A stretch of 64,000 nt of DNA from Thermoanaerobaculia bacterium (GCA_050747865.1 JBOGJI010000236.1:11120-75119); one strand, 5' to 3'; positions 1,660 to 63,897 are shown, numbered from the stretch's first letter. Notes: generated from the letters alone by a model not told the origin. Made by a program: numbers and translations.

Positions 1660-1675
1660 CCGGTTAGGCAGTTCA

Positions 1676-8117: not shown

Positions 8118-8235
8118 GGGGCGGGCTATAGTACCCGCGCATGTCTGGGGGGTCCAAGCCTAGAGCCTGTGAATCCATCTCCCTGGCGCCCTTCGGGTTG
8201 CGGCGGCGTGGCCAGCGGCGCTGCGTTGGCGCTCC

Positions 8236-8721
8236 TTGACGATGCCCACGCATCGACAGCGTCGCGCCGCCTTGCGGCGCTGGCCACGGCGCTCGCAACG
8301 CGACCCACGGGAGATGGATTCACAGGCGCTCCGAGGGTGGCGGAGCCACGCCGCCACCCTCAGCTGGGCCTCGCTCACCGCCGTGGCGCTGCTGGTCCCG
8401 GCGGCGGATCTCGCCGGCTGGATGCCGGCGGTTCCCTGGATGCGCCTGGCCATGGTTTTCGCCGGCTGGGGTCTGGACAAGCTGGTGCACGGGGTGCTGT
8501 TCGGCGTGCTGGCCTGGCTGGCCGCGGGCTCGGCGCGCGTGCTGGCGCTGCGGCGGCCGGCGCTCACAGTCTTTCTCATCGCCGGGCTCTATGCCGTGGC
8601 GTTGGAGGCGGCGCAGCGCTGGGCCCCCGATCGGCGCGCCGACCCGTTCGACCTCGTGGCGGACCTCATCGGCGTCGCCCTGGGGCTCCTGGCCGCCAGG
8701 CGTATACTGCGCCGAGCATGA
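8236..8721 (+). CDS. VanZ-like family membrane protein
   Basis: Hydrophobic ~130-aa core with VanZ-type motifs (DKLVHGVLFGVLAWL ... DLVADLIGVALG). The track start is probably 5'-extended. The stop overlaps the metF ATG (ATGA). Confidence 0.5.
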   Translation: MTMPTHRQRRAALRRWPRRSQRDPREMDSQALRGWRSHAATLSWASLTAVALLVPAADLAGWMPAVPWMRLAMVFAGWGLDKLVHGVLFGVLAWLAAGSARVLALRRPALTVFLIAGLYAVALEAAQRWAPDRRADPFDLVADLIGVALGLLAARRILRRA

Positions 8722-9692
8722 AAGTCCTCGAGCACCTGGAGCGGGCCGACGGCCAGCTCATCAGCTTCGAGATCATCCCGCCGCTCAGGGGCGGGAGCTT
8801 CGAGAAGCTGCGCTCCCTGATCGAGGAGTTGATCGCCCTCGAGCCTCCATTCATCGACATCACCTCCCACGCCGCGCAGATCATGTACGACGAGACGCCG
8901 CAGGGCATCGTGCGGCGCATCAAGCGCAAACGCCCCGGGACCCTCGGCGTCTGTGCGCTCATCCAGAACAAATACAACGTCGACGCCGTGCCCCACGTCA
9001 TCTGCCACGGCTTCACCCGCGAGGAGACGGAAGACTTCCTCATCGAGCTCCACTACCTGGGAATCGACAACGTGCTGGCCATCCGGGGGGACGACTCCGG
9101 CTTCCAGAAACCCTTGCAGTTCGGGCGCACCGCCAACCGCTACGCCGAGGACCTGGTGCGCCAGATCTCCGAGCTGAACCGCGGCAAGTACCTCGAGGAG
9201 GAGCTGCTGGACGCCCAGTCGCTGGACTTCTGCGTCGGCATCGCGGGTTACCCCGAGAAGCACTTCGAGGCGCCGAACATGGAGACCGACCTGCGGTTCA
9301 CCAGGACCAAGGTGGAAGCCGGCGGCGACTACATCGTCACCCAGATGTTCTTCGACAACCGCCACTACTTCCGCTACGTGGAGCGGTGCCGCGAGATCGG
9401 CGTCGAGGTGCCGATCATCCCAGGGCTGAAGATCCTCACCTCGCACAAGCAGGTGACGAGCCTGCCGCGGACCTTCCACTGCGAGGTCCCCGCGGCGCTG
9501 GCCGACGAGGTGCTGGCCGCGGATCCCGACCGCGCCGCCGACATCGGCGTCGAGTGGGCGGTCGAGCAGTCCCGCGAGCTCCTGGAGGCCGGCGTCCCCG
9601 CCCTCCACTTCTACGTCATGCAGAGCGCCCACGCCGTCTCCGAGGTCGTCCGCCGCCTCGACCCCGTACGCGCCACACTCCGCAGCGCCTGA
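8718..9692 (+). CDS. metF: 5,10-methylenetetrahydrofolate reductase
   Basis: ATG at 8718 begins MKVLEHLERADGQLISFEIIPP, the hallmark MetF N-terminus, 324 aa. The track ORF 8022..9692 is an artefactual 5' extension. Confidence 0.85.
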   Translation: MKVLEHLERADGQLISFEIIPPLRGGSFEKLRSLIEELIALEPPFIDITSHAAQIMYDETPQGIVRRIKRKRPGTLGVCALIQNKYNVDAVPHVICHGFTREETEDFLIELHYLGIDNVLAIRGDDSGFQKPLQFGRTANRYAEDLVRQISELNRGKYLEEELLDAQSLDFCVGIAGYPEKHFEAPNMETDLRFTRTKVEAGGDYIVTQMFFDNRHYFRYVERCREIGVEVPIIPGLKILTSHKQVTSLPRTFHCEVPAALADEVLAADPDRAADIGVEWAVEQSRELLEAGVPALHFYVMQSAHAVSEVVRRLDPVRATLRSA

Positions 9693-9903
9693 TCCAGCCC
9701 GGTTGCGAGCGCGGTAACCGCGGTAACCGCGATTGACTTTCGCCGCCGGGTTCCGGTAGCGTCCGCGCCGCATTACGAGCGGTCCGGGGCTCCGCTCCCG
9801 GACACGGCAACCTGGGACCGACACCCAAGGTGCCCACCCGCCGCCCAGGGCGACGGGGATGTGGCCGGAATCGCCGGCAAGCAAATGTTCGGAGGATGGC
9901 TAA

Positions 9904-9934
9904 CCCGCTCGCAATGCCGAGCGGGATTTTTGTT
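9904..9934 (+). promoter_or_regulatory. Terminator/attenuator-like hairpin immediately 5' of the metH start
   Basis: CCCGCTCG-CAATGC-CGAGCGGG stem-loop at 9904-9925, followed by ATTTTTGTT, then ATG at 9935. It sits at the end of a 243-nt metF-metH spacer. Confidence 0.3.
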
Positions 9935-12900
9935 ATGGACACGACGACCTTTCCCGTCCGGATCCCCCCACGGCCGGCCGACCTCGACCAGCGCCGGGCG
10001 GCGCTGGAGGAGGCGCTCACCCGACGCGTCCTGGTGCTCGACGGCGCTACCGGCACTGCGCTGCAGGCCGCCGAGCTGACCGCGGAGGACTTCGGCGGCG
10101 CCGAGCTCGAAGGCTGCAACGAGCACCTGGTGGCGACGCGACCGGACGTCGTGGACGGCGTCCACGAGCGCTATCTCGCCGCCGGCTGCGACATCGTGGA
10201 GACCAACACCTTCGGCGGCACGCCGCTGGTGCTGGCCGAATACGGGCTGGAGACCCAAGCCTTCGAGCTCAACCGCCTGGCCGCCTCGATCGCCCGCGCC
10301 GCCTGCGCCCGACACGACCAGCCGGGCCGGCCGCGCTTCGTCTGCGGCTCCATGGGACCGACGACCAAGGCGATCTCGGTGACCGGCGGCGTCACCTTCG
10401 AGGAGCTGGTCCAGCACTTCCGCATCCAGGCCTTGGGCCTCATGGCCGGCGGCGCCGACTACCTGCTGCTCGAGACCTGCCAGGACACGCGCAACATCAA
10501 GGCCGGGCTGCTGGGGCTCGACGAGGCGTTCGGAGAGTGCGGCTGGCGCCTGCCGGCGGCGGTGTCGGCGACCATCGAGCCCATGGGGACCATGCTGGCG
10601 GGGCAGGACGCCGAGGCCCTGGCGGTCTCCCTGCTGCACGCCGATCTCCTCTACCTGGGCTTGAACTGCGCCACCGGCCCCGACCGCATGACGGATCCCA
10701 TCCGCACGCTCGCCGAGCTGGCGCGCACCCGCGTCGCCTGCGTGCCCAACGCCGGGCTGCCCGACGACGAGGGGCGCTACACCCAGGGTCCGGAGGTCTT
10801 CCGCGAGGTGATCGGCCGCTTCCTCGACGCCGGCTGGCTCAACCTGGTCGGCGGCTGCTGCGGCACCACTGAGGCCCACGTGGCCGCCCTCCGCGAGCTG
10901 GTCGCCGGCCGCCGGCCGCGTGCCCTCCCGCATCACCAGCGCGCCTGGGTCTCCGGCCTCGAGGCCGTCGAGCTGACCGACGACAACCGGCCGCTCTTGG
11001 TGGGCGAGCGCACCAACGTGCTGGGCAGCCGCAAGTTCAAGAGCCTGATCGCCGAAGGCGACTTCGAGGGAGCGGCGGAGATCGGCCGCGCGCAGGTGCG
11101 CGGCGGCGGGCAGGTGCTGGACGTCTGCCTGCAGGACCCCGATCGCGACGAGCTGGCCGACGCCTGCGGCTTCCTCGACCAGCTGGTGCGCCTGGTCAAG
11201 GTGCCGCTGATGCTCGACTCCACCGACGCGGCGGTGATGGAGCAAGCGCTCACCTATTGCCAGGGCAAGGCGGTTCTGAACTCCGTGAACCTGGAGGACG
11301 GTCTGGCGCGCTTTGAGCGGGTGGCGCCGCTGGCCCGCCGCTTCGGCGCCGCCCTGGTCGTCGGCTGCATCGACGAGCAGGGCATGGCGGTGACCCCCGA
11401 ACGCAAGCTCGAGGTCGCGCGCCGCAGCCACGAGCTGCTGACCGAGCGGTTTGGCATCCCGCCCGAAGATCTGTGGTTCGACTCCCTGGTCTTCCCCTGC
11501 GGCACCGGGGACGAGACCTACATCGGCTCGGGCGCCGCCACCATCGAGGGCGTGCGCCGCATCCATGCCGAGTTCCCGCTGTCGAAGACGATTCTCGGCG
11601 TCTCCAACGTCTCGTTCGGGCTGCCCACCGCCGGGCGCGAGGTGCTGAACGCGGTCTTCCTCTACCACGCGACCCGGGCCGGCCTCGACGCGGCGATCGT
11701 CAACACCGAGCGGCTGGCGCGCTACGCGGAGATCCCGCGGGAGGAGCGCGAGCTCGCCGAGCGGCTGCTGTTCCTGGAGCCGGGGGACGTGGCCGGTAGC
11801 GAGGCCGCGGTGGCCGCCTTCGCCGAGCACTTCCGCGGCCGCCAGGCGTCGGCGGTGGCGGCCCCGGACCGCTCGCAGCTGCCCCTGGAAGAGCGGCTGG
11901 CGCGGGCCATCGTCGAAGGCACGAAAGCGGGCCTGGAGGAGGACCTGAGCGCGGCGCTCGCCGACGAGCGCTGGCGCGCGGCGCTGGACATCATCAACGG
12001 TCCCTTGATGGCGGGTATGGCCGAAGTGGGCCGGCTGTTCAACGACAACCAGCTCATCGTCGCCGAGGTGCTGCAGTCGGCCGAGGTGATGAAGGCCGCG
12101 GTGTCGTTCCTCGAGCCGCACATGGAGACCGTCGGCGGCCACAACCGGGGCCGCGTGGTGCTCGCCACCGTCAAGGGAGACGTCCACGACATCGGCAAGA
12201 ACCTAGTGGAGATCATCCTCTCGAACAACGGCTTCGAGGTGGTGAACCTGGGGATCAAGGTCCCCAGCGAGCAGCTCATCGAGGCGGTGCGGCGGCACCG
12301 GCCGGACGTCATCGGGCTCTCGGGGCTGCTGGTCAAGAGCGCCCAGCAGATGGTGCTGACGGCGGAGGACTTCCGCGCCGCCGGCCTCACCGTGCCGCTT
12401 TTGGTCGGCGGCGCGGCGTTGACACGCCGGTTCACCCACAAGAAGATCGCCCCGGCCTACGGGGCGCTGTGCACCTGGGCACGCGACGCCATGCACGGCC
12501 TGCAGCTCGTCGAGCGCATCGTCAACCTCGAGGCGCGGGGCGAGCTCGAGGCTGAGATCGCCGAGCTGATGTCCGAGGACCAGCAGGCGGGGGAGGCGCC
12601 GGCTCCCGTCGGCCCGACCCCCGGCGGCCGGGCGCCTTCGGTGCGCACCGACGTCGACGTGCCGGCGCCGCCGGATCTCGACCGCCACGTGGAAGAGCTG
12701 GACCTCGACGCCGTCTGGTCCCTGCTCAATCCGCAGATGCTCTACGGCAAGCACCTCGGCTTCAAGCGCTCGGTCTATCGCGCCGCCGACGAGGGCGACG
12801 GCAAGTACCTGCGACTCGCCCGCCTGGTGGAGGAGCTCCAGGAGCTGGGTCGGTCAGGGGCCCTCGAGGCGGCGGCCGTGTGGCAGTTCTTCCGCGCCGA

Positions 12901-13429
12901 GACCGAAGGCGAGCGCCTGCGGCTGCTGGCGCCGAACGGCGGCGGAGCGGTCGCCGAGTGGGAGCTGCCCCGCCAGCGCGCCCGCGAGGGCCTCTGCCTG
13001 ACCGACTACGTGCTCGCCGGCGACCACGTGGCGCTGTTCGTCACCACCGCCGGCGCCGGCGTGCTCGAACGGGCCCGGCGGTGGAAAGAGGAGGGGGAGT
13101 ACCTCAAGAGCCACGCCTGGGCGGCGCTGGCCCTGGAGACCGCGGAGGCCGCCGCCGAGCTGCTGCACGAGCGCCTGCGCGCGGCCTGGGGCATCGCCGA
13201 CCCGCCGGAGCTGCCAGTGCGCGACAAGCTGGCGGCGCGCTACCGCGGCAAGCGCTACAGCTTCGGTTATCCGGCCTGCCCGGACCTCGCCGGCCAGCGC
13301 GCCCTGTTCGCCGCCCTCCGGCCGGAGGAGATCGGCGTGCACCTGACCGAGGGCGACATGATGGAGCCCGAGGCCTCGGTCTCCGCCCTCGTCTTCCACC
13401 ACCCCGACGCCCGCTACTTCGGCGTCTGA
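9935..13429 (+). CDS. metH: Cobalamin-dependent methionine synthase
   Basis: Homocysteine-binding, pterin-binding, B12-binding (GDVHDIGKNLV) and AdoMet-activation modules are present, ~1164 aa. The track ORF starts at 9830; ATG 9935 (MDTTTFPV) is preferred, and 9896 is an alternative. Confidence 0.9.
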   Translation: MDTTTFPVRIPPRPADLDQRRAALEEALTRRVLVLDGATGTALQAAELTAEDFGGAELEGCNEHLVATRPDVVDGVHERYLAAGCDIVETNTFGGTPLVLAEYGLETQAFELNRLAASIARAACARHDQPGRPRFVCGSMGPTTKAISVTGGVTFEELVQHFRIQALGLMAGGADYLLLETCQDTRNIKAGLLGLDEAFGECGWRLPAAVSATIEPMGTMLAGQDAEALAVSLLHADLLYLGLNCATGPDRMTDPIRTLAELARTRVACVPNAGLPDDEGRYTQGPEVFREVIGRFLDAGWLNLVGGCCGTTEAHVAALRELVAGRRPRALPHHQRAWVSGLEAVELTDDNRPLLVGERTNVLGSRKFKSLIAEGDFEGAAEIGRAQVRGGGQVLDVCLQDPDRDELADACGFLDQLVRLVKVPLMLDSTDAAVMEQALTYCQGKAVLNSVNLEDGLARFERVAPLARRFGAALVVGCIDEQGMAVTPERKLEVARRSHELLTERFGIPPEDLWFDSLVFPCGTGDETYIGSGAATIEGVRRIHAEFPLSKTILGVSNVSFGLPTAGREVLNAVFLYHATRAGLDAAIVNTERLARYAEIPREERELAERLLFLEPGDVAGSEAAVAAFAEHFRGRQASAVAAPDRSQLPLEERLARAIVEGTKAGLEEDLSAALADERWRAALDIINGPLMAGMAEVGRLFNDNQLIVAEVLQSAEVMKAAVSFLEPHMETVGGHNRGRVVLATVKGDVHDIGKNLVEIILSNNGFEVVNLGIKVPSEQLIEAVRRHRPDVIGLSGLLVKSAQQMVLTAEDFRAAGLTVPLLVGGAALTRRFTHKKIAPAYGALCTWARDAMHGLQLVERIVNLEARGELEAEIAELMSEDQQAGEAPAPVGPTPGGRAPSVRTDVDVPAPPDLDRHVEELDLDAVWSLLNPQMLYGKHLGFKRSVYRAADEGDGKYLRLARLVEELQELGRSGALEAAAVWQFFRAETEGERLRLLAPNGGGAVAEWELPRQRAREGLCLTDYVLAGDHVALFVTTAGAGVLERARRWKEEGEYLKSHAWAALALETAEAAAELLHERLRAAWGIADPPELPVRDKLAARYRGKRYSFGYPACPDLAGQRALFAALRPEEIGVHLTEGDMMEPEASVSALVFHHPDARYFGV

Positions 13430-13935
13430 GCCTCGGGTGAGGTTTCGCGAAGGCGGGTGGTCTCGCGCTGGACCATGTCGATGGTCTGGCGCATGAACTT
13501 GAGGATCAGCTCGAGCTGGCCGGCGCTGTATTGCTCGCACTGGGCGGACCAGCTCTGCTGGATGCCCTCGAACAGGGGGGCGACCTGCGAGTCTGTGCAC
13601 TCGGTGTTGACGAGGAGCAGGATCCGCCGGCGGTCCTTGGGGTCGATCTCGCGGCGCAGGAAGCCGGCCCGCTCCAGGCGGTCGGCGACGCCGGTGATGG
13701 CGCCGCTGGTCAGGCCGGTGGCTTTGGCCAGCTCGCCGGCCGATATCGGCCCGAGCTCGCGCAGGATGTCGAGACATTTCTGGTCGGTGGGGTGGAGCCC
13801 CAGCCGGTCCGCCACCGCCTGGTGGAACAGCACCGTGGCCCGTGCCTGGTGCCGCCCCGCCCAGCGCAGCTCCTCCATGAGCTGGCGCTTCTTCCCGTCA
13901 TCGTCGCCGTTCGCGCTCGTCTTCCTGCTTGACAT
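13414..13935 (-). CDS. MarR family transcriptional regulator
   Basis: 173 aa. Winged-HTH region ISAGELAKATGLTSGAITGVADRLERAGFLRREIDPKDRRR. Divergent from the efflux operon. Its 3' end overlaps metH by 16 nt. Confidence 0.8.
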   Translation of the reverse strand: MSSRKTSANGDDDGKKRQLMEELRWAGRHQARATVLFHQAVADRLGLHPTDQKCLDILRELGPISAGELAKATGLTSGAITGVADRLERAGFLRREIDPKDRRRILLLVNTECTDSQVAPLFEGIQQSWSAQCEQYSAGQLELILKFMRQTIDMVQRETTRLRETSPEAQTPK

Positions 13936-41929: not shown

Positions 41930-43888
41930 ATGGCCGCACGTACCACCCGCTGGGCCCTGGCCGCGGTGCTGCTCCTCGGCGGCCTCCTCCGCTTCACGGC
42001 GCTCGACTACGGGTTGCCGCGCACCGATCTCGGCACCGACGAGCAGATCACGCGCATGCGCGTCCTCCACGGCACGGACACCGGGCGTCTGGTGACGCCG
42101 AAGTACAACTGGCCGCAGCTCAACATCTATGCCTCGCGAACCGCGATCCGCGTCGCGCGCTGGATCGAGAGCCTGCTGGGCGTCGAGGCCCACAACGTGT
42201 TGTGGATCGGGCGCGCGTACACGGCGGTCCTCGGCATGCTGACGCTGGGTCTGGTCTACCTGGTCGGCAGGCGGCTGTTCGACCCCGCGGTGGGCGTGGC
42301 GAGCGCCGGCTTGCTGGCGGTCATGCCGTTGCACGCCAACCGCTCCCGGCTGTGGGTGCCGGACGTCCCCATGACAGCCGCCTACGCCCTCGCCCTGCTG
42401 GCCGCCGTGTGGGCGCTGGAGCGGCCCTCCTGGAGGCGCTTCGCGCTGGCGGGGGTGGCGATCGGGCTGGCTGCCGCCTTCAAGTACAACGGCGCCGGGG
42501 CCTGCCTGGCGCTGGTCCTCGCCGCTGCGATCGCGGCGCGCGCTGCCGGGGGCCTCCGCTCATGGGCCGTGGCGCTCGGCCGGCTGACCGCGGCGGCGCT
42601 GACGTCGATCGCCGTCTTCGTAGCCTGCGATCCTCCAGTGGTGGCGCAGCTCGACCGGCTGGTCCATGGCGTCACCTGGATCGGCGACATCTACACCCGC
42701 GAGCCCTCCACCGGACCGCTGGGCTGGCACACCATGAGCTACATCCTGCGCTCCTTCTTCGCCGGCGGCTATGAGGGGGTGGGCGCCTGGACCTGCCTGC
42801 TCGCTGTCTTCGGTCTGGTGCTGCTGGCGCTGCGGCGGGACCGGGCGGCGGCTTTGGCGGTGGTGCCGGGGTTTCTCTATCTCCTTGGCTACAGCCTGGT
42901 GCTGCGCAACCCGTTCGAGCGGATATTCGTGCCGCTGCTGCCGCACCTGGCGCTGGCCGCCGGCTACGGCACGGTCGTCGCGGCCCGCGCCCTGGCGCGG
43001 CCAGTCGAGTCGCCGCGTCTGCGCGCCGCCGTCGCCGGATGCCTGATCACGATGGCCGTCGTCGCCGCGGCTCCGCAGGCGATGGTCCATGCGTTGGCCG
43101 CCCGAGGCGGCGACACCCGGCTCGACGCCCTGGCCTGGATGCACGACAACGTCCCTGTGGGCGCCTCCGTGCTCTGCGAGTGGGACATGGTGCAGCCCCC
43201 GCACGGCCGCTACTACGGCGGCGACAAGCCGCCGAATCTCTACAACGTCTCCTCCGACCCGGCCGCCTTGGCGGCGCGATGGGACTACGTCATCGCCTCG
43301 AGCCGCACCTACGAGTGGGTGTACCGGCAGCGCTCACGCCCCGGCTTCGACCGCCGCGCCGCTTTCTACGATGCCCTGTTCGACCATCCGCGCTTCGAGG
43401 AGGTGGCGCGTTTCACACCGGGTCCCAGGCGCTACGGGCCGGACCTGCGCGTCTTGCGCAGTCGCCCGCCACGGGGTCCGAGCTTCCCGCCGGACGCGAC
43501 GACCATGCGGCTGGAGGGGTGGGCCTGGCTCTCGTCGCGGCGGCTGCGTTCGCGCAGCCAGCCAGGCGCCTACCGGATGTGGCGCCCTGGCGACAGGATC
43601 ACCGGGAGAGCGGTCGTCGACCGGCCGGGCTGTTACGAGCTCGTGCTTTCCACCATGGCGGCGCGGCCGTCGGAGCTGGCGGTCAGTCTCGGCTCCCGCA
43701 GCCGGACCTTGCGGCTCCATGGCGCGCGGGAGGTGCGGCTGCCGGCGGGCCTGCCGGCGGGTCAGGTCTGGTGGCGCCTGGACACCGCTTCCGGGAGGCA
43801 CCGCGGAGGAGTGATCAAGCTCTGGGATCTGCGTCTGAAGCGCCTCAGCTCCGACCCCACGGCAGGACGATGTAGTGGGGGTCGGTGA
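41930..43888 (+). CDS. GT-C fold glycosyltransferase (GT39 / ArnT / PMT-like), polytopic membrane protein
   Basis: 652 aa. The N-terminal ~420 aa contain ~11 TM helices and a first-loop acidic motif LGTDEQ. The C-terminal ~230 aa are soluble. Confidence 0.6.
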   Translation: MAARTTRWALAAVLLLGGLLRFTALDYGLPRTDLGTDEQITRMRVLHGTDTGRLVTPKYNWPQLNIYASRTAIRVARWIESLLGVEAHNVLWIGRAYTAVLGMLTLGLVYLVGRRLFDPAVGVASAGLLAVMPLHANRSRLWVPDVPMTAAYALALLAAVWALERPSWRRFALAGVAIGLAAAFKYNGAGACLALVLAAAIAARAAGGLRSWAVALGRLTAAALTSIAVFVACDPPVVAQLDRLVHGVTWIGDIYTREPSTGPLGWHTMSYILRSFFAGGYEGVGAWTCLLAVFGLVLLALRRDRAAALAVVPGFLYLLGYSLVLRNPFERIFVPLLPHLALAAGYGTVVAARALARPVESPRLRAAVAGCLITMAVVAAAPQAMVHALAARGGDTRLDALAWMHDNVPVGASVLCEWDMVQPPHGRYYGGDKPPNLYNVSSDPAALAARWDYVIASSRTYEWVYRQRSRPGFDRRAAFYDALFDHPRFEEVARFTPGPRRYGPDLRVLRSRPPRGPSFPPDATTMRLEGWAWLSSRRLRSRSQPGAYRMWRPGDRITGRAVVDRPGCYELVLSTMAARPSELAVSLGSRSRTLRLHGAREVRLPAGLPAGQVWWRLDTASGRHRGGVIKLWDLRLKRLSSDPTAGRCSGGR

Positions 43889-56136: not shown

Positions 56137-57414
56137 TCACGCCAGGACCTGCACCTCGGGGATGGCGACCACGAACTGGCCTCCCCATTCTTGTACGCCC
56201 GACATCTGCTCGACCACCTCGTCCCTGAGGTTCCAGGGCAGGATCAGGATGTAGTCGGGCCGGGTGTCGAAGATGCGCTCGGGCGGATGGATCGGAATGC
56301 GTGTCCCGGGGAGCAGGTGTCCCTGCTTGTGCGGCGAGATATCGACCGTGTAGTCGAGGGTCTCGACCCCGATTCCGCAATAGTTGAGCAAGGTGTTCCC
56401 TTTCGCCGGAGCGCCATAGCCGACGATGCGTTTACCTTCCCCCTTTGCCTTTGCCAGGAAGCCCAGGAGCTTGCGCTTGGTCGCCCGCACCCGCGCGTCG
56501 AAGGCGCGATAGGTCTCGAGGTCCGCGAGCCCGAACGTCTCCTCGCGCGCCAGCAGCTCGACCACCCTCTCTCCCCCCTGCCCGGGCTCATCGTCCGCTC
56601 CCTCGCCGGCGCGCCGCGCGTAGATGCGCAGCGATCCGCCATGGGTATGTAGCTCCTCGACGTCGAACACTTCCAGCCCGTGATGCGCGAGGACCCGGCG
56701 CACCGTGCCGAAGGAGAAGTACGAATAGTGCTCGTGATAGATGGTGTCGAACTGATTCTCCGCCATCAGCCGCATCAGGTGCGGGAACTCCATCGTCAGC
56801 ACGCCTTGCTCCGCGAGCACGGTGCTCAGGCCGCCGACGAAGTTGTTGAGGTCCGGCACGTGAGCCAGCACATTGTTGCCGATCAGGAGATCCGCCCGCC
56901 ACCCCTCGGCCGCCAGCTCCCGTGCTATGGCCTCGTCAAAGAAGCGCACTCGCGTCGGGACTCCCGCCTCCTCCGCCGCCCGCGCGACGTTCGCCGCAGG
57001 CTCGATACCGAGCACGGGGACGCCGCGATCGCGGAAGGAGCGCAGCAGGTAGCCGTCGTTGCTCGCCACCTCCACCACCCGTGACGTGGCGTCGTAGCGG
57101 AAGCGCTCGATCATCGAATCGACGAAGTTCTGCGCATGCTCGAGCCACGTGCGCGAATACGAGGAGAAATACGCGTATTCGCTGAACAGCTCCTGTGGCT
57201 TCAAGACCTCAAGGATTTGTACCAGGTAGCAGGAGCCGCAGACATAGGCGACCAGCGGGTAGAAGACATCGGGCAAGTGCGCCTTCTCGGGTGGCACGTA
57301 GGCATTCGCCGGCGGCGACAGCCCCAGGTCGGCGAACGTCTCGGTCAACTCGGCGCAGCAGAAGCGGCAAAACTTCTCGATCACAACCACAAAGTTACAA
57401 CTACGACCAAGCAA
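56137..57414 (-). CDS. Zinc-ribbon C-methyltransferase (Methyltransf_13/14 family, NDP-hexose C-methyltransferase-like)
   Basis: N-terminal CxxC...CxxC (CRFCCAEL ... CGSCYLVQ), a class I SAM-MT core (VVEVASNDG) and the C-methyltransferase C-terminal domain. The probable true start is GTG at 57384 (M-IEKFCRFC) rather than the track TTG at 57414. Confidence 0.65.
   Translation of the reverse strand: MLGRSCNFVVVIEKFCRFCCAELTETFADLGLSPPANAYVPPEKAHLPDVFYPLVAYVCGSCYLVQILEVLKPQELFSEYAYFSSYSRTWLEHAQNFVDSMIERFRYDATSRVVEVASNDGYLLRSFRDRGVPVLGIEPAANVARAAEEAGVPTRVRFFDEAIARELAAEGWRADLLIGNNVLAHVPDLNNFVGGLSTVLAEQGVLTMEFPHLMRLMAENQFDTIYHEHYSYFSFGTVRRVLAHHGLEVFDVEELHTHGGSLRIYARRAGEGADDEPGQGGERVVELLAREETFGLADLETYRAFDARVRATKRKLLGFLAKAKGEGKRIVGYGAPAKGNTLLNYCGIGVETLDYTVDISPHKQGHLLPGTRIPIHPPERIFDTRPDYILILPWNLRDEVVEQMSGVQEWGGQFVVAIPEVQVLA
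57383..57403 (-). promoter_or_regulatory. Direct-repeat motif copy 1 (minus strand TAGTTGT-N7-TGGTTGT; start codon GTG formed by the last heptad)
   Basis: Plus strand ACAACCAcaaagttACAACTA. See the findings section. Confidence 0.4.
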
Positions 57415-57464
57415 GGGTCAAGAGCCGATGGACGCGAACGCGTGCCGCGGTCACGGTCTCGCGC

Positions 57465-59282
57465 TCAGCCGCCGTCAGCCGGGTGCCGACCCATCAGAAC
57501 GGGGTGCTGTCGGCGCTCCCTTCGGGCAGCACCTCTTCGGGCACCTTTTCGGGGATCGATCGGCTCCGGGAACGTCAGGGCCAGCCGAAGGTTCTCGAAG
57601 AAACGGTGACGATTGAACACCTTCCGCTCGATGACCTCGATGCTGGCCAGGTTGGCGCTCACCCAAGGCGGCGCGATGCCCGACTCGACGGCCCGCCGGA
57701 ACGACCCGATGCGCGGACGGTTGTCGGCCGCGAGCTCGATGTGACCGATGGCCCGCGCCATCGGCACGAGGTCCCACTTGTGTCCAGGCCGGTCATGCGG
57801 CACCTTGGCGCGCGCCAGGAACGGCTCCGTCAGGCCGAGACTGTGTATGGCCCGTTCCTGTGCTCGGCCGTAGAGCCCCGCGCACCAGAAATCGACCACG
57901 AGCCCGCGATGCGGCGGCTGCGCCGCCGACACGGCGGCCTCGCGGTACGACGTCTTCCTATCGACCTTGTCGCAGCCGCCCCACGGCGGACACGCGAGGT
58001 CCGGGTGATGGCGATGAGCCGCGGCATCGTTGATCAAGACCGGCCTCCGGCTGGGCCCCTTGTCGGGTCTCACGACCTGGATCGGGGACCCGAGAGTGCC
58101 GAGAATCGGATGGCGATCGAGCTGACGCGGGTAGCGCGTGAAGACGGCGCCCATCACCAACAGCGCGGCGACGACTGGTGCGACACGCGGCACGCGCCAG
58201 CGGATCCGGGCCACGAGGTGCTCCGGCAGCCCGGCCGTAGCCGCCACGGCGAGGCAAACCGGGAACGCGAGATAGCGATAGTGCCGAGAATCCCCACCGA
58301 TCTTGACGACGAAGGCCGTGACCGAGGCCGCGAGACAAATCAGCACGACACGCTCGGGTAGGTGCAAGGGCGGCCTCGCGAAACCGCGCCGTGCGGCGGC
58401 GCGATCGCTCCACGCGAGCAGCCCGAAGCCGGTCGCGGCGGCGCCGAGCAGCCAGTGCAGGCCGTAGGCGTTGGCCGTGTCGAGGAGATAGACCACACCC
58501 TGCCGGAGCAAGTTGACGTTCTTCAGATAGAAGGTGTTAGGCAGCAGCTCGGCGTAGTACCAGATGCGCAAGGCGATCCAGGTGCCCGTCGTGAGCAGCG
58601 TCGAGAGCAGGAGGGCCCAGGGCACCCGCCGGGTGCGCCAGCCGCACCAGGCCACGAGCAGCAGCCATGGCACCGCCAGCTCGGGCCGAACCAGCGGACC
58701 CAGGCCGGCTGCCAGCTGCGGCCAGCGATCCTGAGGGCGAAACACGACGAGTGCGAACACCGCCGCCATCACTTGCACGAGGGGAGTCTCGACGCCCGAG
58801 GTGAAGTAGCAAAGCACGGCGTAGTTGGTAGCCAGAAGCAGCAGCGGCAAGGAGAACGGCGCGACGCCCTGCGGCGCCACATGGCGGTTGACGCGCACGA
58901 GCAGCGCCCAGAACGCCACGCATGACAGCACGCCCAGCACGCGGACGGCGAGCCACCACCCAGAACCGACCGCCCTCGCCACGAGGAGCGTCAGCATCCA
59001 GAGAGGGCTGCTGAACCCCTCGACGTATTCGCCAGCGTTGTAGACCAGGCCGCGGCCCGCATAGAGCGCGTTGTCGACGAAGCGAAAGTAGACGAACGAG
59101 TCGTCGATCAGCCAGGAGTACTGAACGGTCAGGACGACGAGCACGAAGAGCGCCAGCCACTCCGCCGCCGTCCGGCGCAGGCGAGGCGAGCTCGGGGCCA
59201 GGTCGGGGCGGCCCCCGTCAATCATCGAAGCGTGCGAGCGGGTTGTTGCACGGTGTGATGGACGGGGCGTAGAAGCCGACAT
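57465..59282 (-). CDS. Polytopic membrane protein, possibly GT-C-like, with a C-terminal soluble domain and conserved tail
   Basis: 605 aa. ~10 TM helices in the first ~330 aa. First-loop acidic motif LIDDSFVYFRF. The C-terminus ends RRQHPVLMGRHPADGG. The start may be the internal MIDGG. Confidence 0.35.
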   Translation of the reverse strand: MSASTPRPSHRATTRSHASMIDGGRPDLAPSSPRLRRTAAEWLALFVLVVLTVQYSWLIDDSFVYFRFVDNALYAGRGLVYNAGEYVEGFSSPLWMLTLLVARAVGSGWWLAVRVLGVLSCVAFWALLVRVNRHVAPQGVAPFSLPLLLLATNYAVLCYFTSGVETPLVQVMAAVFALVVFRPQDRWPQLAAGLGPLVRPELAVPWLLLVAWCGWRTRRVPWALLLSTLLTTGTWIALRIWYYAELLPNTFYLKNVNLLRQGVVYLLDTANAYGLHWLLGAAATGFGLLAWSDRAAARRGFARPPLHLPERVVLICLAASVTAFVVKIGGDSRHYRYLAFPVCLAVAATAGLPEHLVARIRWRVPRVAPVVAALLVMGAVFTRYPRQLDRHPILGTLGSPIQVVRPDKGPSRRPVLINDAAAHRHHPDLACPPWGGCDKVDRKTSYREAAVSAAQPPHRGLVVDFWCAGLYGRAQERAIHSLGLTEPFLARAKVPHDRPGHKWDLVPMARAIGHIELAADNRPRIGSFRRAVESGIAPPWVSANLASIEVIERKVFNRHRFFENLRLALTFPEPIDPRKGARRGAARRERRQHPVLMGRHPADGG

Positions 59283-59583
59283 ACGAAATGAGGCGGGATT
59301 CGTCGGCGTCGAACCTGAAGAAGTCGGTCGAGAGCAGAAACTGTGCCCGAACGCGATCGGGCCACCGGTCGCGTCCGGGCAACCGCCCGACGTAGCGCCG
59401 ATAGTCCGTCTCGAACGCGTCCAGCGCGGCAGGATCGAGGTTCAGATATGCGAATGCGGCTTGCCTCGCCTCGTCGCTTTCCGTTGGTGACGCTCGCCGG
59501 CGCCTCCATAGCGACACGCCGAGAAGCGGCACCCCGACGGCCACGCCGAGCAGCTGCAGGAGACGGCGGCGAGTGAGCGCCAT
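59218..59583 (-). CDS. Small Tat-signal protein (candidate hitchhiker/small subunit of the adjacent GMC flavoprotein)
   Basis: 121 aa. Twin-arginine signal MALTRRRLLQLLGVAVGVPLLG. The ATG lies 1 nt after the GMC stop (translational coupling). Confidence 0.4.
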   Translation of the reverse strand: MALTRRRLLQLLGVAVGVPLLGVSLWRRRRASPTESDEARQAAFAYLNLDPAALDAFETDYRRYVGRLPGRDRWPDRVRAQFLLSTDFFRFDADESRLISYVGFYAPSITPCNNPLARFDD

Positions 59584-59584
59584 G

Positions 59585-61042
59585 TCAGGCCGCGCCTCCG
59601 GACCTCAACAGCTTGTCGGCCGCTCGCAGAGACAGCGCCGCGATCGTCAGCGTGGGATTGGCCGGCGCCGCGGTCGGAAACGTGCTGCTGCCCAGGACGA
59701 GGAGATTGCGAACGCGGTGGTGCACGAGGCCGGCGTCGACGACGCCGTCCGCGGCAGTGCGTCCCATCGGGGTGGTGCACTGGATGTGGGCTTCGGTCGC
59801 GCCCCGATCGCGCCAGATCTCGAACCGCTCCACCGGCAGAGCGGCGAGCACGCGCGTCAGATTGGCTGCGAGCGCGGCGATGCCGCGCTCGGCATACGCG
59901 GAGTGGCGCTTGAACTCCACTGCCGGCTGCTCCGCGTCGGCATCGTCAACGGTGACGCGATTGTCGGCCTGCGGCAGATCCTCGTAGATGAACTGCAAGT
60001 GCAGCTGCTCGCGCCATCTGCCCCGTTCGTGCCGGAGCTCCGGGACGTTCCAGGTCTCCATCATGGCGGCCGCGCGATCGCGTCGATGATCGCCGCCGTA
60101 CAGCATGTAGCCAAGGCCCGTGATGCTGGTGCTGCCCTGGAAATTGTCGACTCCGTCGAGCATGACGTCGACCGCGACCGAGACCTGTTCGACGAGGCCG
60201 CGTCCGACCTTGTCGTCGGTCAGGTCCGATCGCAGGAGGAGGTAGGGGTTGAAGATCGCGTTCGCCCCAAGGCCCGCGAGCTCCGTGGGGACGAAGTGGT
60301 CGGCGCCGCCTCGCCGGTAGCGGATCCCCGTCAGCGTGCTGCCGGCGACTTCGACGGCTTGGACATGTGCGCCCGTGAGCAGCGTGACACGCGGATCCCG
60401 ATAGAGATGCGTCAGCTCATTGAGAATGGTGAACTTCGAGTCGATGGGGCACTTATGGCAAATCCCGTTCGCACAGCAACGCGGACGGCCCGAAGGCAGT
60501 GCGCGGCTCGGACGCGCCGCCGGCTGCTGAAAGAAGCGATCGGGGAAGTGCCGCTTGAACAAGCGATCGGGATCGGTGAAACGGTGCGGCGGCAGCGGGT
60601 AGGGACGGCTGCGCGGGTATGGCGAGCCGTCGGCGGGACCCGAGACCGCCATGATCTCCTCGGCGTCGCAGTAGTACTCCTCCAGATCCTCGTACACCAC
60701 GGGCCAGTCGCGACCGACTCCGTATAGGGAATGAAGGCGGAAGTCCTCGGGCAGCATACGCGGTGTGCACGCCCACCAGCAGTTGGATCCTCCGCCGAAG
60801 GCCAGACGAAACGTCCACTTCTTCCACGGGCTGCGGTTCCGGAAGCTCCTGTCGGCCGCTCTTCTGAGTCCACGGTCGTGCTCAGTGTGCCATCGATGGG
60901 AGTACATCTCGCCGCGCTCGAGCACGAGCACGCGGGTCCGGCGGCCGGCCCGTTCGAGATACCGGTGCAGGAAGAACGTCGCGGCGAACCCGGTGCCCAC
61001 GAGTACGAGATCGTAGGCGCCTTCTAGCATGGATACAACCAT
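59585..61042 (-). CDS. GMC-family FAD-dependent oxidoreductase
   Basis: 485 aa. N-terminal Rossmann motif DLVLVGTGFAA. GMC C-terminal domain (HIQCTTPMG, LLVLGSSTFPT, NPTLT). Confidence 0.8.
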   Translation of the reverse strand: MVVSMLEGAYDLVLVGTGFAATFFLHRYLERAGRRTRVLVLERGEMYSHRWHTEHDRGLRRAADRSFRNRSPWKKWTFRLAFGGGSNCWWACTPRMLPEDFRLHSLYGVGRDWPVVYEDLEEYYCDAEEIMAVSGPADGSPYPRSRPYPLPPHRFTDPDRLFKRHFPDRFFQQPAARPSRALPSGRPRCCANGICHKCPIDSKFTILNELTHLYRDPRVTLLTGAHVQAVEVAGSTLTGIRYRRGGADHFVPTELAGLGANAIFNPYLLLRSDLTDDKVGRGLVEQVSVAVDVMLDGVDNFQGSTSITGLGYMLYGGDHRRDRAAAMMETWNVPELRHERGRWREQLHLQFIYEDLPQADNRVTVDDADAEQPAVEFKRHSAYAERGIAALAANLTRVLAALPVERFEIWRDRGATEAHIQCTTPMGRTAADGVVDAGLVHHRVRNLLVLGSSTFPTAAPANPTLTIAALSLRAADKLLRSGGAA

Positions 61043-61055
61043 ATTGTTACAACCA
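61035..61055 (-). promoter_or_regulatory. Direct-repeat motif copy 2 (minus strand TGGTTGT-N7-TGGTTGT, 4 nt before the ATG)
   Basis: Plus strand ACAACCAtattgttACAACCA. See the findings section. Confidence 0.4.
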
Positions 61056-61118
61056 AAAGCTTACAAAGAAAGCGCGAAACCGGGACGGGGCGAGCGCCCC
61101 GCGCTTGCGGTGTCGCGC

Positions 61119-61730
61119 TCAGCCGCCGTCGCGGGAGTGCCGACCCATCAAAACGGCGTGCCGTCGCCGCTCGCTGTCGAGGGCTCGGCCTCGATCGCTG
61201 ACGAACGCGAGGATCTCGCGCATGTCGAGCACTAGAGAGAGCGCAGGCGTCTCCGGGCGCGTCAGAATGTGGGCCAGGTCTTTCTGGTTGCGGATGCAAA
61301 TTGCGCGCTCGTGGACTACGACGTAGCGCGCCGTCTCGAGTTCCCTGTCGACCTGCTTGAGCGTGTCCAGCAAGGAGCGCAGCGTCGCCACCGACACGCC
61401 CTGCTCCCGTAGGGAGCGGGCGATCCGCAGGCGGAGGACGTCGGCGAACCCGTACCGGCGCTCCCGCCCCCTGCCCCTGCCGGCGCCCTTGAAGACGCTC
61501 GGCCGCAAGAACCCCGTACGGCCCCAGGAATCCACCGTGAAAAAGGGAACGTCGCTGAGCCACGCCGCTTCCCGCGAGGTGAATCCCTCGCCGCCGTCTT
61601 CTCCGCCTGACCTCGCCGGCGGGGTCGCTTCTTCGGCTGTCGGTCCGGTTCGCCTCATCGCTCCCCGAGACGAGATGTTCGCGGTGGCATCTGCACCATC
61701 GTATCGCCAGCATACAGGAGCCCGCCACAC
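61119..61730 (-). CDS. MerR-like HTH transcriptional regulator with conserved C-terminal tail
   Basis: MerR-type HTH (FTSREAAWLSDVPFFTVDSWGRTGFLRPS...RRYGFADVLRLRIARSLREQGVSVATLRSLL). Likely start at MRRTGP. Ends RRRHAVLMGRHSRDGG. Confidence 0.5.
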   Translation of the reverse strand: MWRAPVCWRYDGADATANISSRGAMRRTGPTAEEATPPARSGGEDGGEGFTSREAAWLSDVPFFTVDSWGRTGFLRPSVFKGAGRGRGRERRYGFADVLRLRIARSLREQGVSVATLRSLLDTLKQVDRELETARYVVVHERAICIRNQKDLAHILTRPETPALSLVLDMREILAFVSDRGRALDSERRRHAVLMGRHSRDGG

Positions 61731-61742
61731 GTCCGGCCGGCT

Positions 61743-63878
61743 TCACGGTTGGATCTCCAGCCAGACTGGCGAGGTCCACGCGCGCACCGTGCGGCCACGG
61801 GTCGGCTCCGACAGTTGTGCACGCAGGTAGTAGATGACCTCGCCCGAGCTGCTGTCGAGCCGATCGACGAACCGATCGTCGAGGAGGCGGTCGATCTCCC
61901 GCCACTCCTTGGCCACTTGCCATCCCGCCTCGGGATCTGAGAAGCGCATCAGCTGAGCGAGCTCGATCTGTCCGGCGGCTGCCAGCAGGACGCGGCCGTC
62001 GGGGTCGCTGCCACATCTGCCGGTACCCCCCATGGGGGTTCCCGAAACCTCGAATTCGAGATAGATCCGCCGGCCGGTCGTGGCGTAGGTCCGACGAGCC
62101 ACGATGGCGTCGAAGATGGCCTCTCGTTCCAACCTGGGGGCCAGCACGGCGGTCAACCCGGCGTGAGGCTGGCCCGGCTGGGCCGTGTGGTTGTCGCTGC
62201 CGGCCACCGTGCCGACACGGTGGCCGAGGGCCCAGGCGTCGCGGGCGTAATGCGGTCCGGGCTGGGGATGTGACGGCAGGTAGCCGACCTTGTTGTATGC
62301 CAGGGCATCTTGGGGGTCGTCGTATTCGGAGCTGCCGTGCAGCGAATAGATCTCGAGGTTGGGCCGCAGCTCGATCGCGGTCGGTCCGGGCGGGCGCCAG
62401 TCTACCCACGGACCGTGCCGGCGTCGTTCGTAGGGAGGTGGCGGGCCCAATCCCGCGTGCCGCACGATCCTCGGCCAGCTCGCCGCGGTGGTGCGACCGA
62501 GGTGGTGGGGGATGGTGAAGGCCGTACCCGGCTCGAGCCGTTTCCACAGATTGGCCACCGACCCGAGGCGTCGTGGGTTCCACGGCACGCCCTCTTCCGA
62601 GCGGAAGTAGACGCAGTGGTGCCCGTCGTGGAACGTGCACTCATAGCCCAGGAGGGTGACGAAGCGTCCGGGGTCGTAGAAGCGCCGCACGCGCCGCCGG
62701 ATCGTCTGCCACTCCTGGGGTGTGATGCCGTCTTTCTCGCGGCGCCAGTTCACGTCGTCCTCGGAGTGCTCCGTCGGTGCCAGGAAGTCCAGGCGGGTGA
62801 TGTCCCGGGCATATCGGAAGTCGTCGTGCCCGACCGCGTCCTTGCTGATCGCGGAGTGGGAGTGCAGGTCCCCCCAGAAGATCCGTTCGGCCGGCGGTTT
62901 CGCATACACTCGGATCGGGTCCCCAGCGATCCGCCGCTCCGCTTCGCCGCCTTCCGCGGCGAGACGCAAGACGGCGACCGGCCAGTGGAAGCCGGTCCGC
63001 CGCGGCACCCATCGGAAACGCACGGCTCCGCGCTCCAGGGCTCCGGCGCTGGGCGGGAGCGCGGACGCGGCGAGACCGGCGGCGACGACTTTGCCGCGGG
63101 CGCGAGCCAGGTTGGCGAAGCGGTCGAACACGGTGAGCTGCAGCTCGACCGCTTCTCCGACGACCACCTGACTGGGTCCGAACAGGGCGAAATCCGTGGC
63201 CGCGGCCGCGTCGACCCGGTAGCGAGCAGGGCGTGGGAGCAGCCGGTACGCACCCTCGCCGCTGCGGTCCACCGCCGCCCGGATGGAGTCCTCGCCCGCG
63301 AGGTAGGGGGCCGTCGTGTTGTGCAGCGTGAGCCGGACTTCGTCGCCGGCGCGCAGATGGCCGCCCTCCACCGTCACCGCGGCGATGTGCGGATACCGCG
63401 TCGTCTTACCGTCGAAGTTGCGCTGCTGCAGCTTCACGTCGAGCTCGACGTCGGCACGCGAGGCGGCCGCCGACACGAAGTGGGCGGCGCCCGGTTGTAC
63501 CTGCTGGAACGGCTTCGGCCACGGGTAGAGCTCCGCGAACCAGGCCTTAGGGAGGTCGAAAAGCAAGCCGCCGGCCGTGGCGATGCCTCCCGCGCCGACC
63601 GTGAAGTGCACCGTGTAGGTCCCCACCTGGGCAGCGGTCATGTGGTCGGGCTCGACGCGGATCGCCCCTGTAGCGGCTCCGATGACCAGGCGCGAAGGGG
63701 TCGGCTCGAAGGCCTCGTCGAGTCCTTCCGCCAGCACCACGAGCTCCCCCTGCCGACCGCGATCGTCGGAGTGCCTGGCAGCGAGACCTCGCTGCACAGG
63801 CCGCCAGACCAGCAGGGTGATCGTCAAGAGGCCGGCCAGGACCATCGCGGCCCGCAGGCTGCGAACAAAGCGCGACAC
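61743..63878 (-). CDS. DUF3604 / PHP-like metal-dependent hydrolase domain protein with N-terminal signal-anchor and beta-rich domain
   Basis: 711 aa, GTG start. N-terminal TM MVLAGLLTITLLVW. The C-terminal ~400 aa carry the PHP/DUF3604 metal motif FWGDLHSHSAISKDA and further His/Asp clusters (PTEHSEDD, IPHHLG, GSDNH). Confidence 0.6.
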   Translation of the reverse strand: MSRFVRSLRAAMVLAGLLTITLLVWRPVQRGLAARHSDDRGRQGELVVLAEGLDEAFEPTPSRLVIGAATGAIRVEPDHMTAAQVGTYTVHFTVGAGGIATAGGLLFDLPKAWFAELYPWPKPFQQVQPGAAHFVSAAASRADVELDVKLQQRNFDGKTTRYPHIAAVTVEGGHLRAGDEVRLTLHNTTAPYLAGEDSIRAAVDRSGEGAYRLLPRPARYRVDAAAATDFALFGPSQVVVGEAVELQLTVFDRFANLARARGKVVAAGLAASALPPSAGALERGAVRFRWVPRRTGFHWPVAVLRLAAEGGEAERRIAGDPIRVYAKPPAERIFWGDLHSHSAISKDAVGHDDFRYARDITRLDFLAPTEHSEDDVNWRREKDGITPQEWQTIRRRVRRFYDPGRFVTLLGYECTFHDGHHCVYFRSEEGVPWNPRRLGSVANLWKRLEPGTAFTIPHHLGRTTAASWPRIVRHAGLGPPPPYERRRHGPWVDWRPPGPTAIELRPNLEIYSLHGSSEYDDPQDALAYNKVGYLPSHPQPGPHYARDAWALGHRVGTVAGSDNHTAQPGQPHAGLTAVLAPRLEREAIFDAIVARRTYATTGRRIYLEFEVSGTPMGGTGRCGSDPDGRVLLAAAGQIELAQLMRFSDPEAGWQVAKEWREIDRLLDDRFVDRLDSSSGEVIYYLRAQLSEPTRGRTVRAWTSPVWLEIQP

Positions 63879-63897
63879 AACCAGATGTTTACAACCA
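63877..63897 (-). promoter_or_regulatory. Direct-repeat motif copy 3 (minus strand TGGTTGT-N7-TGGTTGT; start codon GTG formed by the last heptad)
   Basis: Plus strand ACAACCAgatgtttACAACCA. See the findings section. Confidence 0.4.

Follow-up and report, generated by a model that had tools for sequence, protein, structure and literature searches.

A recurrent gene trio for a GMC dehydrogenase, a small Tat-signal protein, and an AftB-like GT-C glycosyltransferase at the core of a gene block in Thermoanaerobaculia

A 64-kb stretch of a metagenome-assembled genome (MAG) of Thermoanaerobaculia (Acidobacteriota), referred to here as the window, carries a block of six genes at positions 56137 to 63878 (all coordinates of the block are window positions), all of them on the minus strand. 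They encode a DUF3604 metal hydrolase, a MerR-like protein, a flavoprotein dehydrogenase of the GMC family, a small protein with a twin-arginine translocation (Tat) signal, a polytopic membrane protein resembling the glycosyltransferase AftB, and a C-methyltransferase. Only the combination of the GMC dehydrogenase, its small subunit, and an AftB-like GT-C glycosyltransferase recurs across distant genomes. This trio is apparently undescribed, and no description of a GMC/Tat/AftB-like GT-C association was found in the literature. The methyltransferase and MerR genes are local additions to it, and the DUF3604 gene is largely one. The block as a whole is somewhat probably a lineage-specific, apparently coregulated mosaic built around the dehydrogenase/GT-C trio.

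Recurrence of the trio across genomes

Gene neighborhoods were compared in two sets of genome loci, one anchored on the GT-C gene (79 loci with 10-kb flanks) and one anchored on the GMC gene (82 loci, 27 of which are well flanked, with at least 2 kb upstream and at least 2.5 kb downstream). The small-subunit gene lies directly downstream of the GMC gene in at least 58 to 68 of the 82 GMC loci. With a hidden Markov model, an AftB-like GT-C gene was detected no more than 1.5 kb away from the GMC gene in 19 of the 82 loci, with 16 scoring above 80 bits, and in 9 of the 27 well-flanked loci, where it occurs on either side and on either strand. These GT-Cs belong to a sister subfamily of the one in the window, being about 30% identical to it in the N-terminal half and having the DD...NxGExVEG motif in common with it. 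The window's own GT-C subfamily usually stands alone: a GMC gene was found in 1 of its 79 loci (L038), the methyltransferase, DUF3604, small-protein, and MerR genes were found in none, and no family was common to more than 7 of the approximately 80 loci as a conserved neighbor. Likewise, the methyltransferase, DUF3604, and MerR genes were found in none of the 82 GMC loci.

A second GMC lineage, which has no Cys cluster of the kind described below and has its own Tat/lipoprotein-like small protein, follows the window's GT-C subfamily in two loci, L038 and L081. In L038 (positions 8469 to 13713; Bdellovibrionota), a DprE1-like gene is divergent from a series consisting of the GT-C gene, the second-lineage GMC gene, and a gene for a 130-aa Tat/lipobox protein. 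L081, which was fetched separately, contains the closest GT-C relative found (71% identity) together with a second-lineage GMC/small-protein pair and two DUF3604 paralogs, each 46 to 47% identical to the window's DUF3604 protein; neither the methyltransferase nor the MerR gene is present in the 13.5 kb covered. Because nonorthologous dehydrogenases recur beside the GT-C, a functional link between exported GMC enzymes and AftB-like GT-Cs is suggested, and L081 gives modest support for a link of the GMC/GT-C pair to DUF3604 proteins.

Six of the GMC loci also encode an HAD-UbiA prenyltransferase (575 bits to PRK08238), a DprE1-like FAD oxidase (363 bits to the DprE1 model, which does not reach the cutoff of 500), and a DprE2-like SDR protein, and these three genes typically form an operon divergent from the GMC, small-subunit, and GT-C genes. 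The DprE1/DprE2/UbiA operon and the trio would together give a six-gene unit making and using a polyprenyl-phospho-pentofuranose. Compact clusters of all six genes, with the DprE2-like, DprE1-like, and HAD-UbiA genes and the divergent trio, were seen on the metagenome contigs L127 (974 to 7867), L135 (6361 to 13731), and L162 (2571 to 9826). In a 5.4-Mb genome (L087, 140 to 21446), the trio lies within a large polysaccharide cluster that encodes GT2, GT4, sulfotransferase, and deacetylase proteins and several more polytopic proteins of 450 to 740 aa without a Pfam match. At six GMC loci (L114, L129, L142, L143, L152, and L163), a different polytopic protein of about 500 aa, also without a Pfam or NCBIfam match, is encoded close to the GMC/small-subunit pair and may be an alternative membrane partner.

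Predicted properties of the trio proteins

The 586-aa polytopic protein has no match in Pfam or NCBIfam; its sequence is 100% identical to that of a hypothetical protein from a Thermoanaerobaculia MAG. It belongs to a family of more than 300 detected members, all of which are unannotated and without Pfam domains, from Planctomycetota, Myxococcota, Binatia, Krumholzibacteriota, and other groups. An AlphaFold2 (AF2) model built on 31 homologs has a predicted local distance difference test (pLDDT) score of 87, and in a Foldseek search of the PDB, its top matches are AftB structures (9dlf/9dlh; E value, 3e-10; template modeling [TM] score, 0.53 to 0.56), followed by ALG9, EmbA/B/C, ArnT, AftD, and AftA, whereas transporters score far worse. 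The sequence profile of the family also matches AftB (9dlf_C) with an E value of 4.4e-24, over AftB residues 54 to 390. In AftB, D62 of the DD motif is the catalytic nucleophile, and R221 and R372 are essential phosphate binders (PMC12041299). These three residues align with D42, R180, and R317 of the window's protein, in which D41-D42 and R180 are invariant and R317 is at least 90% conserved among the 31 homologs. On the basis of the fold matches, the profile match, and these conserved residues, the membrane protein is predicted to be an AftB-type GT-C glycosyltransferase. An earlier model-based reading of the window (the first-pass annotation) had described its first-loop DD motif as reminiscent of GT-C glycosyltransferases, with a transporter model as the outcome that would contradict this; the structural comparison favors the GT-C fold. 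A polyprenyl-phospho-arabinofuranose donor may be proposed by analogy only, through the DprE1/DprE2/UbiA homologs that stand beside related loci and not in the window.

The GMC protein begins directly with the GxGxxG motif for binding flavin adenine dinucleotide (FAD) and has no signal peptide. A profile of 23 homologs matches the alpha subunit of the Burkholderia FAD-dependent glucose dehydrogenase (FAD-GDH) (6a2u/8hdd; E value, 9e-59) and the large subunit of fructose dehydrogenase (7w2j; E value, 8e-52). Among the 23 homologs, C185, C191, and C194 are invariant and C186 is at least 90% conserved, and the motif RPRCCANGICHKCPI aligns with the Cys212/213/218/222 cluster of the alpha subunit of the Burkholderia cepacia enzyme (BcGDH). 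In BcGDH, Cys212, Cys218, and Cys222 hold a 3Fe-4S cluster, and Cys213 is disulfide bonded to Cys152 of the Tat "hitchhiker" gamma subunit (PMC6719666). The window's dehydrogenase is homologous to these enzymes and has a predicted 3Fe-4S-type cysteine cluster.

All 23 small-subunit family members compared have the RR pair, a Cys near the C terminus (C112) is nearly invariant, and the Pfam TAT_signal model matches six members; beyond the Tat signal, nothing in Pfam or the PDB was matched by sequence. The conserved Cys could take the role of Cys152 in the BcGDH gamma subunit, and by the same analogy, the small subunit is presumed to act as a carrier in the export of the GMC protein. The profile matches, the Cys alignment, the invariant RR pair, and a gap of only 1 nt between the two genes are consistent with a dehydrogenase pair of the hitchhiker type, as had been proposed in the first-pass annotation.

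The gene block, its shared motif, and its duplicated segment

A second, nonidentical assembly (L001) has the same block, and its annotation, which also shows the limits of the block, was used together with the window sequence to define the genes in Table 1. In L001, the block is flanked upstream by a divergent ThiS gene and tig/clpP/clpX/lon and downstream by genes for enoyl-CoA hydratase, aldehyde dehydrogenase, and thiolase. Within the block, the ATG of the small-subunit gene follows the TGA of the GMC gene by 1 nt, and the start of the GT-C gene overlaps the stop of the small-subunit gene by 8 nt; the remaining junctions are gaps of 80 to 88 nt, and the coupling of starts previously claimed for the whole block is therefore confined to the trio. 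The GC content at third codon positions (GC3) of the four large block genes is 0.82 to 0.85, below the value of about 0.9 or more of most window genes and the 0.95 to 0.96 of the adjacent downstream enoyl-CoA hydratase and aldehyde dehydrogenase genes, suggesting that the four genes differ from the others in origin or in level of expression. In a check for horizontal transfer, the bulk GC content of the block was 67 to 68%, compared with a window mean of about 70%, and nearby housekeeping genes had similar values. A search for defense systems with PADLOC gave no match. Outside the block, the window also contains a gene for a PMT_2-type GT-C at 41930 to 43888 (plus strand) and, at 76 to 2722 (minus strand), a pair of GT2 and Branch-family genes with low GC3 (0.76 to 0.81).

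Table 1. Genes, motif copies, and repeat copies of the block (ORF, open reading frame; SAM, S-adenosylmethionine)
Feature	Position	Strand	Remarks
DUF3604 metal hydrolase (predicted)	61743..63878	-	Longest ORF, 711 aa; annotated start in L001 at 63845 gives 700 aa
MerR_1-type helix-turn-helix protein	61119..61658	-	179 aa; start as in the L001 gene call; Pfam MerR_1
GMC flavoprotein dehydrogenase	59585..61030	-	481 aa; GMC_oxred_C
Small Tat-signal subunit	59218..59583	-	121 aa; starts MALTRRRLL
AftB-like GT-C (predicted)	57465..59225	-	586 aa; AF2/Foldseek and family profile
Zinc-ribbon SAM C-methyltransferase	56137..57384	-	415 aa; GTG start; Methyltransf_13/23/14
Motif copy 1 (GTTGTAAACATCTGGTTGT)	63877..63895	-	5' end of DUF3604 gene; TTGACT before
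Motif copies 2a and 2b	61035..61067	-	Overlapping, 14-nt register; end 4 nt before GMC ATG
Motif copy 3 (GTTGTAACTTTGTGGTTGT)	57383..57401	-	Overlaps methyltransferase GTG start; TTGACC before
82-nt repeat copy A	57440..57521	-	3' end of GT-C ORF, stop, and start of intergenic region
82-nt repeat copy B	61094..61175	-	3' end of MerR ORF, stop, and start of intergenic region

The sequence GTTGTAA-N5-TGGTTGT has three exact matches in the 64 kb, and a fourth copy with one mismatch overlaps the GMC site. With up to 3 mismatches allowed, 0.42 matches would be expected, and none of 100 shuffles reached 4. All copies are located at gene starts, namely, those of the DUF3604 gene, the GMC gene (two overlapping copies), and the methyltransferase gene. 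At two of the three sites, TTGACY lies at a fixed distance before the motif and 18 to 19 nt upstream of a weak -10-like hexamer. Since reading of the sequence revealed no obvious Shine-Dalgarno sequence before the first gene of each unit, the motif is most simply a promoter or operator element, and it may regulate all three units. The motif is kept in L001, and both it and the 82-nt repeat are absent from all other fetched loci. In L081, an AT-rich divergent promoter region (8627 to 8727) upstream of the second-lineage GMC operon contains TGTAACAAT, which is identical to the core of the window's pre-GMC motif copy; this match is short and could be due to chance.

The two copies of the 82-nt segment form a direct repeat with 80% identity. 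The segment encodes the last ~25 residues of the GT-C and contains the last ~20 codons of the MerR gene, so that the two proteins end in nearly identical tails (VLMGRHxxDGG before the stop). A genuine shared peptide was considered and rejected, as all 30 aligned GT-C homologs end before the tail. Because the homologs are without it, the tail is best explained as a by-product of the duplication of a DNA cassette, and the shared tail reported earlier corresponds to this duplication. A structured RNA or riboswitch in the repeat or the upstream regions was also rejected, with fold energies similar to those of shuffled sequences (z scores of +1.5 to -1.6), and an Rfam search (E value, ≤1) of the repeat and the upstream regions gave no match except a spurious internal ribosome entry site. 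Just past the MerR stop (61087 to 61100), a GC-rich hairpin (GGGGCG-CT-CGCCCC) is followed by a T-rich stretch; although not called by the consensus scan, this hairpin may separate the first unit from the second as a terminator.

The methyltransferase matches Methyltransf_13 (1e-19), Methyltransf_23, and Methyltransf_14 (4.5e-62) and consists of a zinc-ribbon N-terminal domain, a class I SAM methyltransferase domain, and a C-terminal Methyltransf_14 domain. It has thousands of close homologs with 65 to 79% identity. Orthologs with 65 to 74% identity are found in operons with the order NTP_transferase, methyltransferase, dTDP_sugar_isom, DUF4910, and SDR, and in three acidobacterial genomes, this operon is conserved with a phosphodiesterase gene at its front. 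In these genomes (L170, L171, and L172, about 7200 to 11800 in each), the strongly conserved operon has genes for RmlC-like and DUF4910/DUF2172/HTH_47 proteins between the methyltransferase and SDR genes and probably encodes the synthesis of a branched-chain sugar. A homolog with 74% identity is flanked by RmlC-like, DUF4910, and epimerase genes. None of the usual partner genes (nucleotidyltransferase, RmlC-like, and DUF4910) was found in the window. The domain architecture and the ortholog operons confirm at the sequence level the predicted assignment to the cytoplasmic nucleoside diphosphate (NDP)-ketosugar type, separated here from its usual operon. Lacking a signal peptide and requiring SAM, the methyltransferase cannot act in the periplasm, and since its orthologs keep an NDP-sugar operon of their own, its context is unrelated to the trio.

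The DUF3604 protein matches Pfam DUF3604 above the cutoff (1.4e-14) and the NCBIfam CehA/McbA metallohydrolase model below it (4.8e-15; 55.8 bits, with a cutoff of 80). The family comprises 4,228 representative clusters, and in a literature search for DUF3604, a single mention was found, in a Chlamydia transposon-mutant study. Its PHP metal-ligand motifs (D337/H339/H341, H371, E413, H420, H458/H459, and D562/H564) are kept in 41 homologs. In the AF2 model (pLDDT, 91), an N-terminal helix (residues 2 to 35) is followed by beta-sandwich domains (60 to 325) with an immunoglobulin (Ig)-like fold resembling those of invasin and surface-layer proteins and then by a PHP-like domain and a C-terminal beta domain. 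The structure 3e38 is matched both by the sequence profile (E value, 0.006) and by fold (E value, 1.4e-7). The protein is accordingly modeled as an anchored PHP-type metal hydrolase with Ig-like domains, which may be of the kind that binds surface polymers. The MerR-like protein has a MerR_1 helix-turn-helix domain (Pfam, 1.8e-9), and no homolog of it was found in any other fetched locus. With these assignments, all five statements on gene content in the first-pass annotation (C-methyltransferase, GT-C-like membrane protein, GMC/Tat pair, MerR-like regulator, and anchored DUF3604/PHP-type hydrolase) hold, as do the single strand and the motif shared by the three unit starts.

Proposed model, alternatives, and relation to known systems

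We propose that the block consists of three transcription units, namely, DUF3604-MerR, GMC-small subunit-GT-C, and the C-methyltransferase, each preceded by the same cis motif, with the second as the functional core. The GMC protein, with FAD and a 3Fe-4S cluster, would fold in the cytoplasm and bind the 121-aa protein, whose twin-arginine signal would carry it across the membrane. On the outer face of the membrane, the dehydrogenase would work beside the AftB-type GT-C, to which it may be coupled physically or functionally. The GT-C would move a sugar, by analogy most likely a pentofuranose such as arabinofuranose, from a polyprenyl-phosphate donor to an envelope glycan. The dehydrogenase would oxidize a hydroxyl of the sugar on the donor, the acceptor, or the product, which leaves several orders of reaction conceivable, and electrons would exit via the 3Fe-4S cluster to a presumed acceptor that is not encoded at the locus. 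The DUF3604 PHP hydrolase would be an accessory envelope enzyme, and the C-methyltransferase would act on an NDP-ketosugar in the cytoplasm, probably having been moved under a duplicated copy of the promoter cassette. As a whole, this three-unit mosaic with the trio at its core seems to us slightly better than an even proposition.

Several observations weigh against this model. Of the approximately 80 other loci of the window's GT-C subfamily, just 2 (L038 and L081) have a neighboring GMC gene. In addition, 18 of the 27 well-flanked GMC loci yielded no AftB-like GT-C up to 1.5 kb from the GMC/small-subunit pair, which would therefore work in other contexts too. The 64-kb window contains no genes of the decaprenyl-phospho-arabinose type, and the cluster has no UbiA, DprE1/2, or GtrB-like genes and no flippase. 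Sequence searches revealed no detectable similarity between the small subunit and known gamma/hitchhiker subunits or Gluconate_2-dh3. Pfam and NCBIfam scans found no gene for a cytochrome c partner in the block, and just 4 of the 82 loci contain an ORF with CxxCH at a distance of up to 3 kb from the GMC gene. As for regulation, a scan for sigma-70 consensus promoters and intrinsic terminators found nothing useful, and the motif is a direct repeat in a 14-nt register, not the palindrome expected for a MerR operator.

The first-pass annotation had joined all six genes into one envelope pathway, in which a single carbohydrate would be acted on in turn by the methyltransferase, the dehydrogenase, the GT-C, and the hydrolase, with the MerR protein as regulator. 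The single strand, the motif common to three starts, and the similar, atypically low GC3 values of the four large genes (0.82 to 0.85) are in keeping with such a pathway, as is the retention of the GT-C, DUF3604, and GMC/small-protein genes together in L081; however, L081 lacks the methyltransferase and MerR genes in the part covered, and these two genes are missing from all 82 GMC and all 79 GT-C loci. Moreover, methyltransferase orthologs in other genomes belong to a separate, conserved NDP-sugar operon, and the SAM that the enzyme requires is cytoplasmic, whereas export is predicted for the dehydrogenase, which also speaks against methylation at the envelope. We regard a single six-gene pathway as very improbable. 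The earlier interpretation is thus supported in part: its gene content stands, and gene neighborhoods bear out the GMC/small-subunit/GT-C trio, but they do not extend to the methyltransferase or MerR gene and include DUF3604 in L081 only.

The six genes could also be unrelated neighbors, the GMC/small-subunit pair being a catabolic respiratory dehydrogenase of periplasmic sugars or polyols, similar to FAD-GDH or fructose dehydrogenase, whose adjacency to the GT-C has no meaning. The closest solved relatives of the GMC protein are indeed catabolic dehydrogenase complexes, and the neighbors of the GMC gene vary, with no GT-C detected nearby in the 18 well-flanked loci mentioned above. However, chance adjacency would have to account for the overlap of the small-subunit stop with the GT-C start, for adjacency in 19 loci in differing orientations and again with a second GMC lineage, and for the co-occurrence with decaprenyl-phospho-arabinose-type operons, and no cytochrome c subunit links the enzyme to a respiratory chain; we therefore consider this explanation unlikely. 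A more specific form of the proposed model makes the exported GMC protein a periplasmic counterpart of DprE1, which oxidizes the lipid-linked pentofuranose donor and so alters the sugar that the GT-C installs. The co-occurrence with AftB-like GT-Cs and DprE1/DprE2/UbiA operons agrees with this, and auxiliary epimerases are known to diversify pentofuranose donors (PMC11127046). Nevertheless, a DprE1 homolog is also present in seven loci (the six GMC loci and L038), where the GMC protein is no replacement for it, and there is no periplasmic reductant to complete an epimerization, and oxidation of the donor in this manner appears improbable.

Glycosylation with lipid-linked pentofuranoses, carried out by GT-C enzymes, is fundamental to the mycobacterial cell wall, itself a drug target, and to the diversity of O antigens. 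The auxiliary redox enzymes known from these pathways either reside in the cytoplasm or have a disputed location. A genetic link between AftB-type transferases and a flavin/iron-sulfur dehydrogenase exported by Tat would suggest that a redox step takes place on the membrane's outer face. We raise as a tentative possibility, in which we place limited confidence, that the trio is a widespread and unrecognized class of extracytoplasmic glycan-building system, with the Tat-exported dehydrogenase carrying out NAD(P)-free redox editing of a polyprenyl-phosphate pentofuranose donor or of the freshly attached sugar. If so, keto or otherwise modified pentofuranoses would be present in the envelopes of many uncultured phyla. 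The trio would give a testable function to the large "choline dehydrogenase-like" protein family and to the unannotated families of 121- to 136-aa Tat proteins and ~550-aa membrane proteins, whose members in metagenomes number in the thousands, and it would extend AftB-like chemistry well beyond Actinobacteria. In addition, the locus offers a clear case of promoter-cassette duplication, which appears to make a displaced gene part of a regulon and incidentally gives two unrelated proteins identical C-terminal tails.

The accessory proteins each resemble a known type. The methyltransferase resembles NDP-hexose C-methyltransferases of the TylC3/TcaB9 type, with the same three domains (Methyltransf_13, class I methyltransferase, and Methyltransf_14) and with orthologs inside nucleotidyltransferase/epimerase/reductase operons, but the window gene is apart from all of its partner genes. 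The predicted hydrolase shares the PHP metal-binding motifs and fold of the DUF3604/CehA-McbA metallohydrolases (3e38) and differs from them in its membrane anchor at the N terminus and its Ig-like beta-sandwich domains, which span about 260 residues.

For the dehydrogenase, the nearest known systems are the FAD-dehydrogenase complexes, such as the B. cepacia gamma-alpha-beta FAD-GDH and the Gluconobacter fructose dehydrogenase. The catalytic subunit is homologous over ~400 residues, and with BcGDH, it also shares the aligned four-Cys cluster, the lack of its own signal peptide, and a small partner with a twin-arginine signal and a conserved C-terminal Cys. In BcGDH, the small gene precedes the catalytic gene, whereas in the present block, it follows. 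The systems further differ in that a gene for the multiheme cytochrome c subunit that serves as electron acceptor is missing nearby, the small subunit does not resemble gamma subunits or Gluconate_2-dh3 in sequence, and the third conserved partner is a GT-C glycosyltransferase.

For the GT-C, the closest counterpart is AftB (CAZy GT89), the terminal β-1,2-arabinofuranosyltransferase, with homology in sequence and predicted fold across the whole protein and with the DD motif and both phosphate-binding arginines kept. As in the decaprenyl-phospho-arabinose pathway, relatives of the trio adjoin DprE1/DprE2/UbiA homologs, although the window has no donor synthesis genes and some members of the GT-C family adjoin GtrB-like GT2 genes instead. 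AftB is mycobacterial, whereas the present protein comes from an acidobacterial MAG and its family extends across Planctomycetota, Myxococcota, Binatia, and others. In a broader sense, the trio follows the logic of the three-component extracytoplasmic pentofuranose glycosylation systems described by Kelly et al. in 2024 (PMC11127046), in which a lipid-linked pentofuranose donor and a periplasmic-side GT-C are joined by optional auxiliary redox enzymes, through which the sugar is diversified. Those systems use GT136 and not an AftB-like GT-C, their synthase and MATE flippase have no equivalent in the present cluster, and GMC enzymes are not mentioned in that paper. Their auxiliary enzyme is a cytoplasmic SDR epimerase, whereas that of the trio would be an exported flavin/iron-sulfur dehydrogenase.

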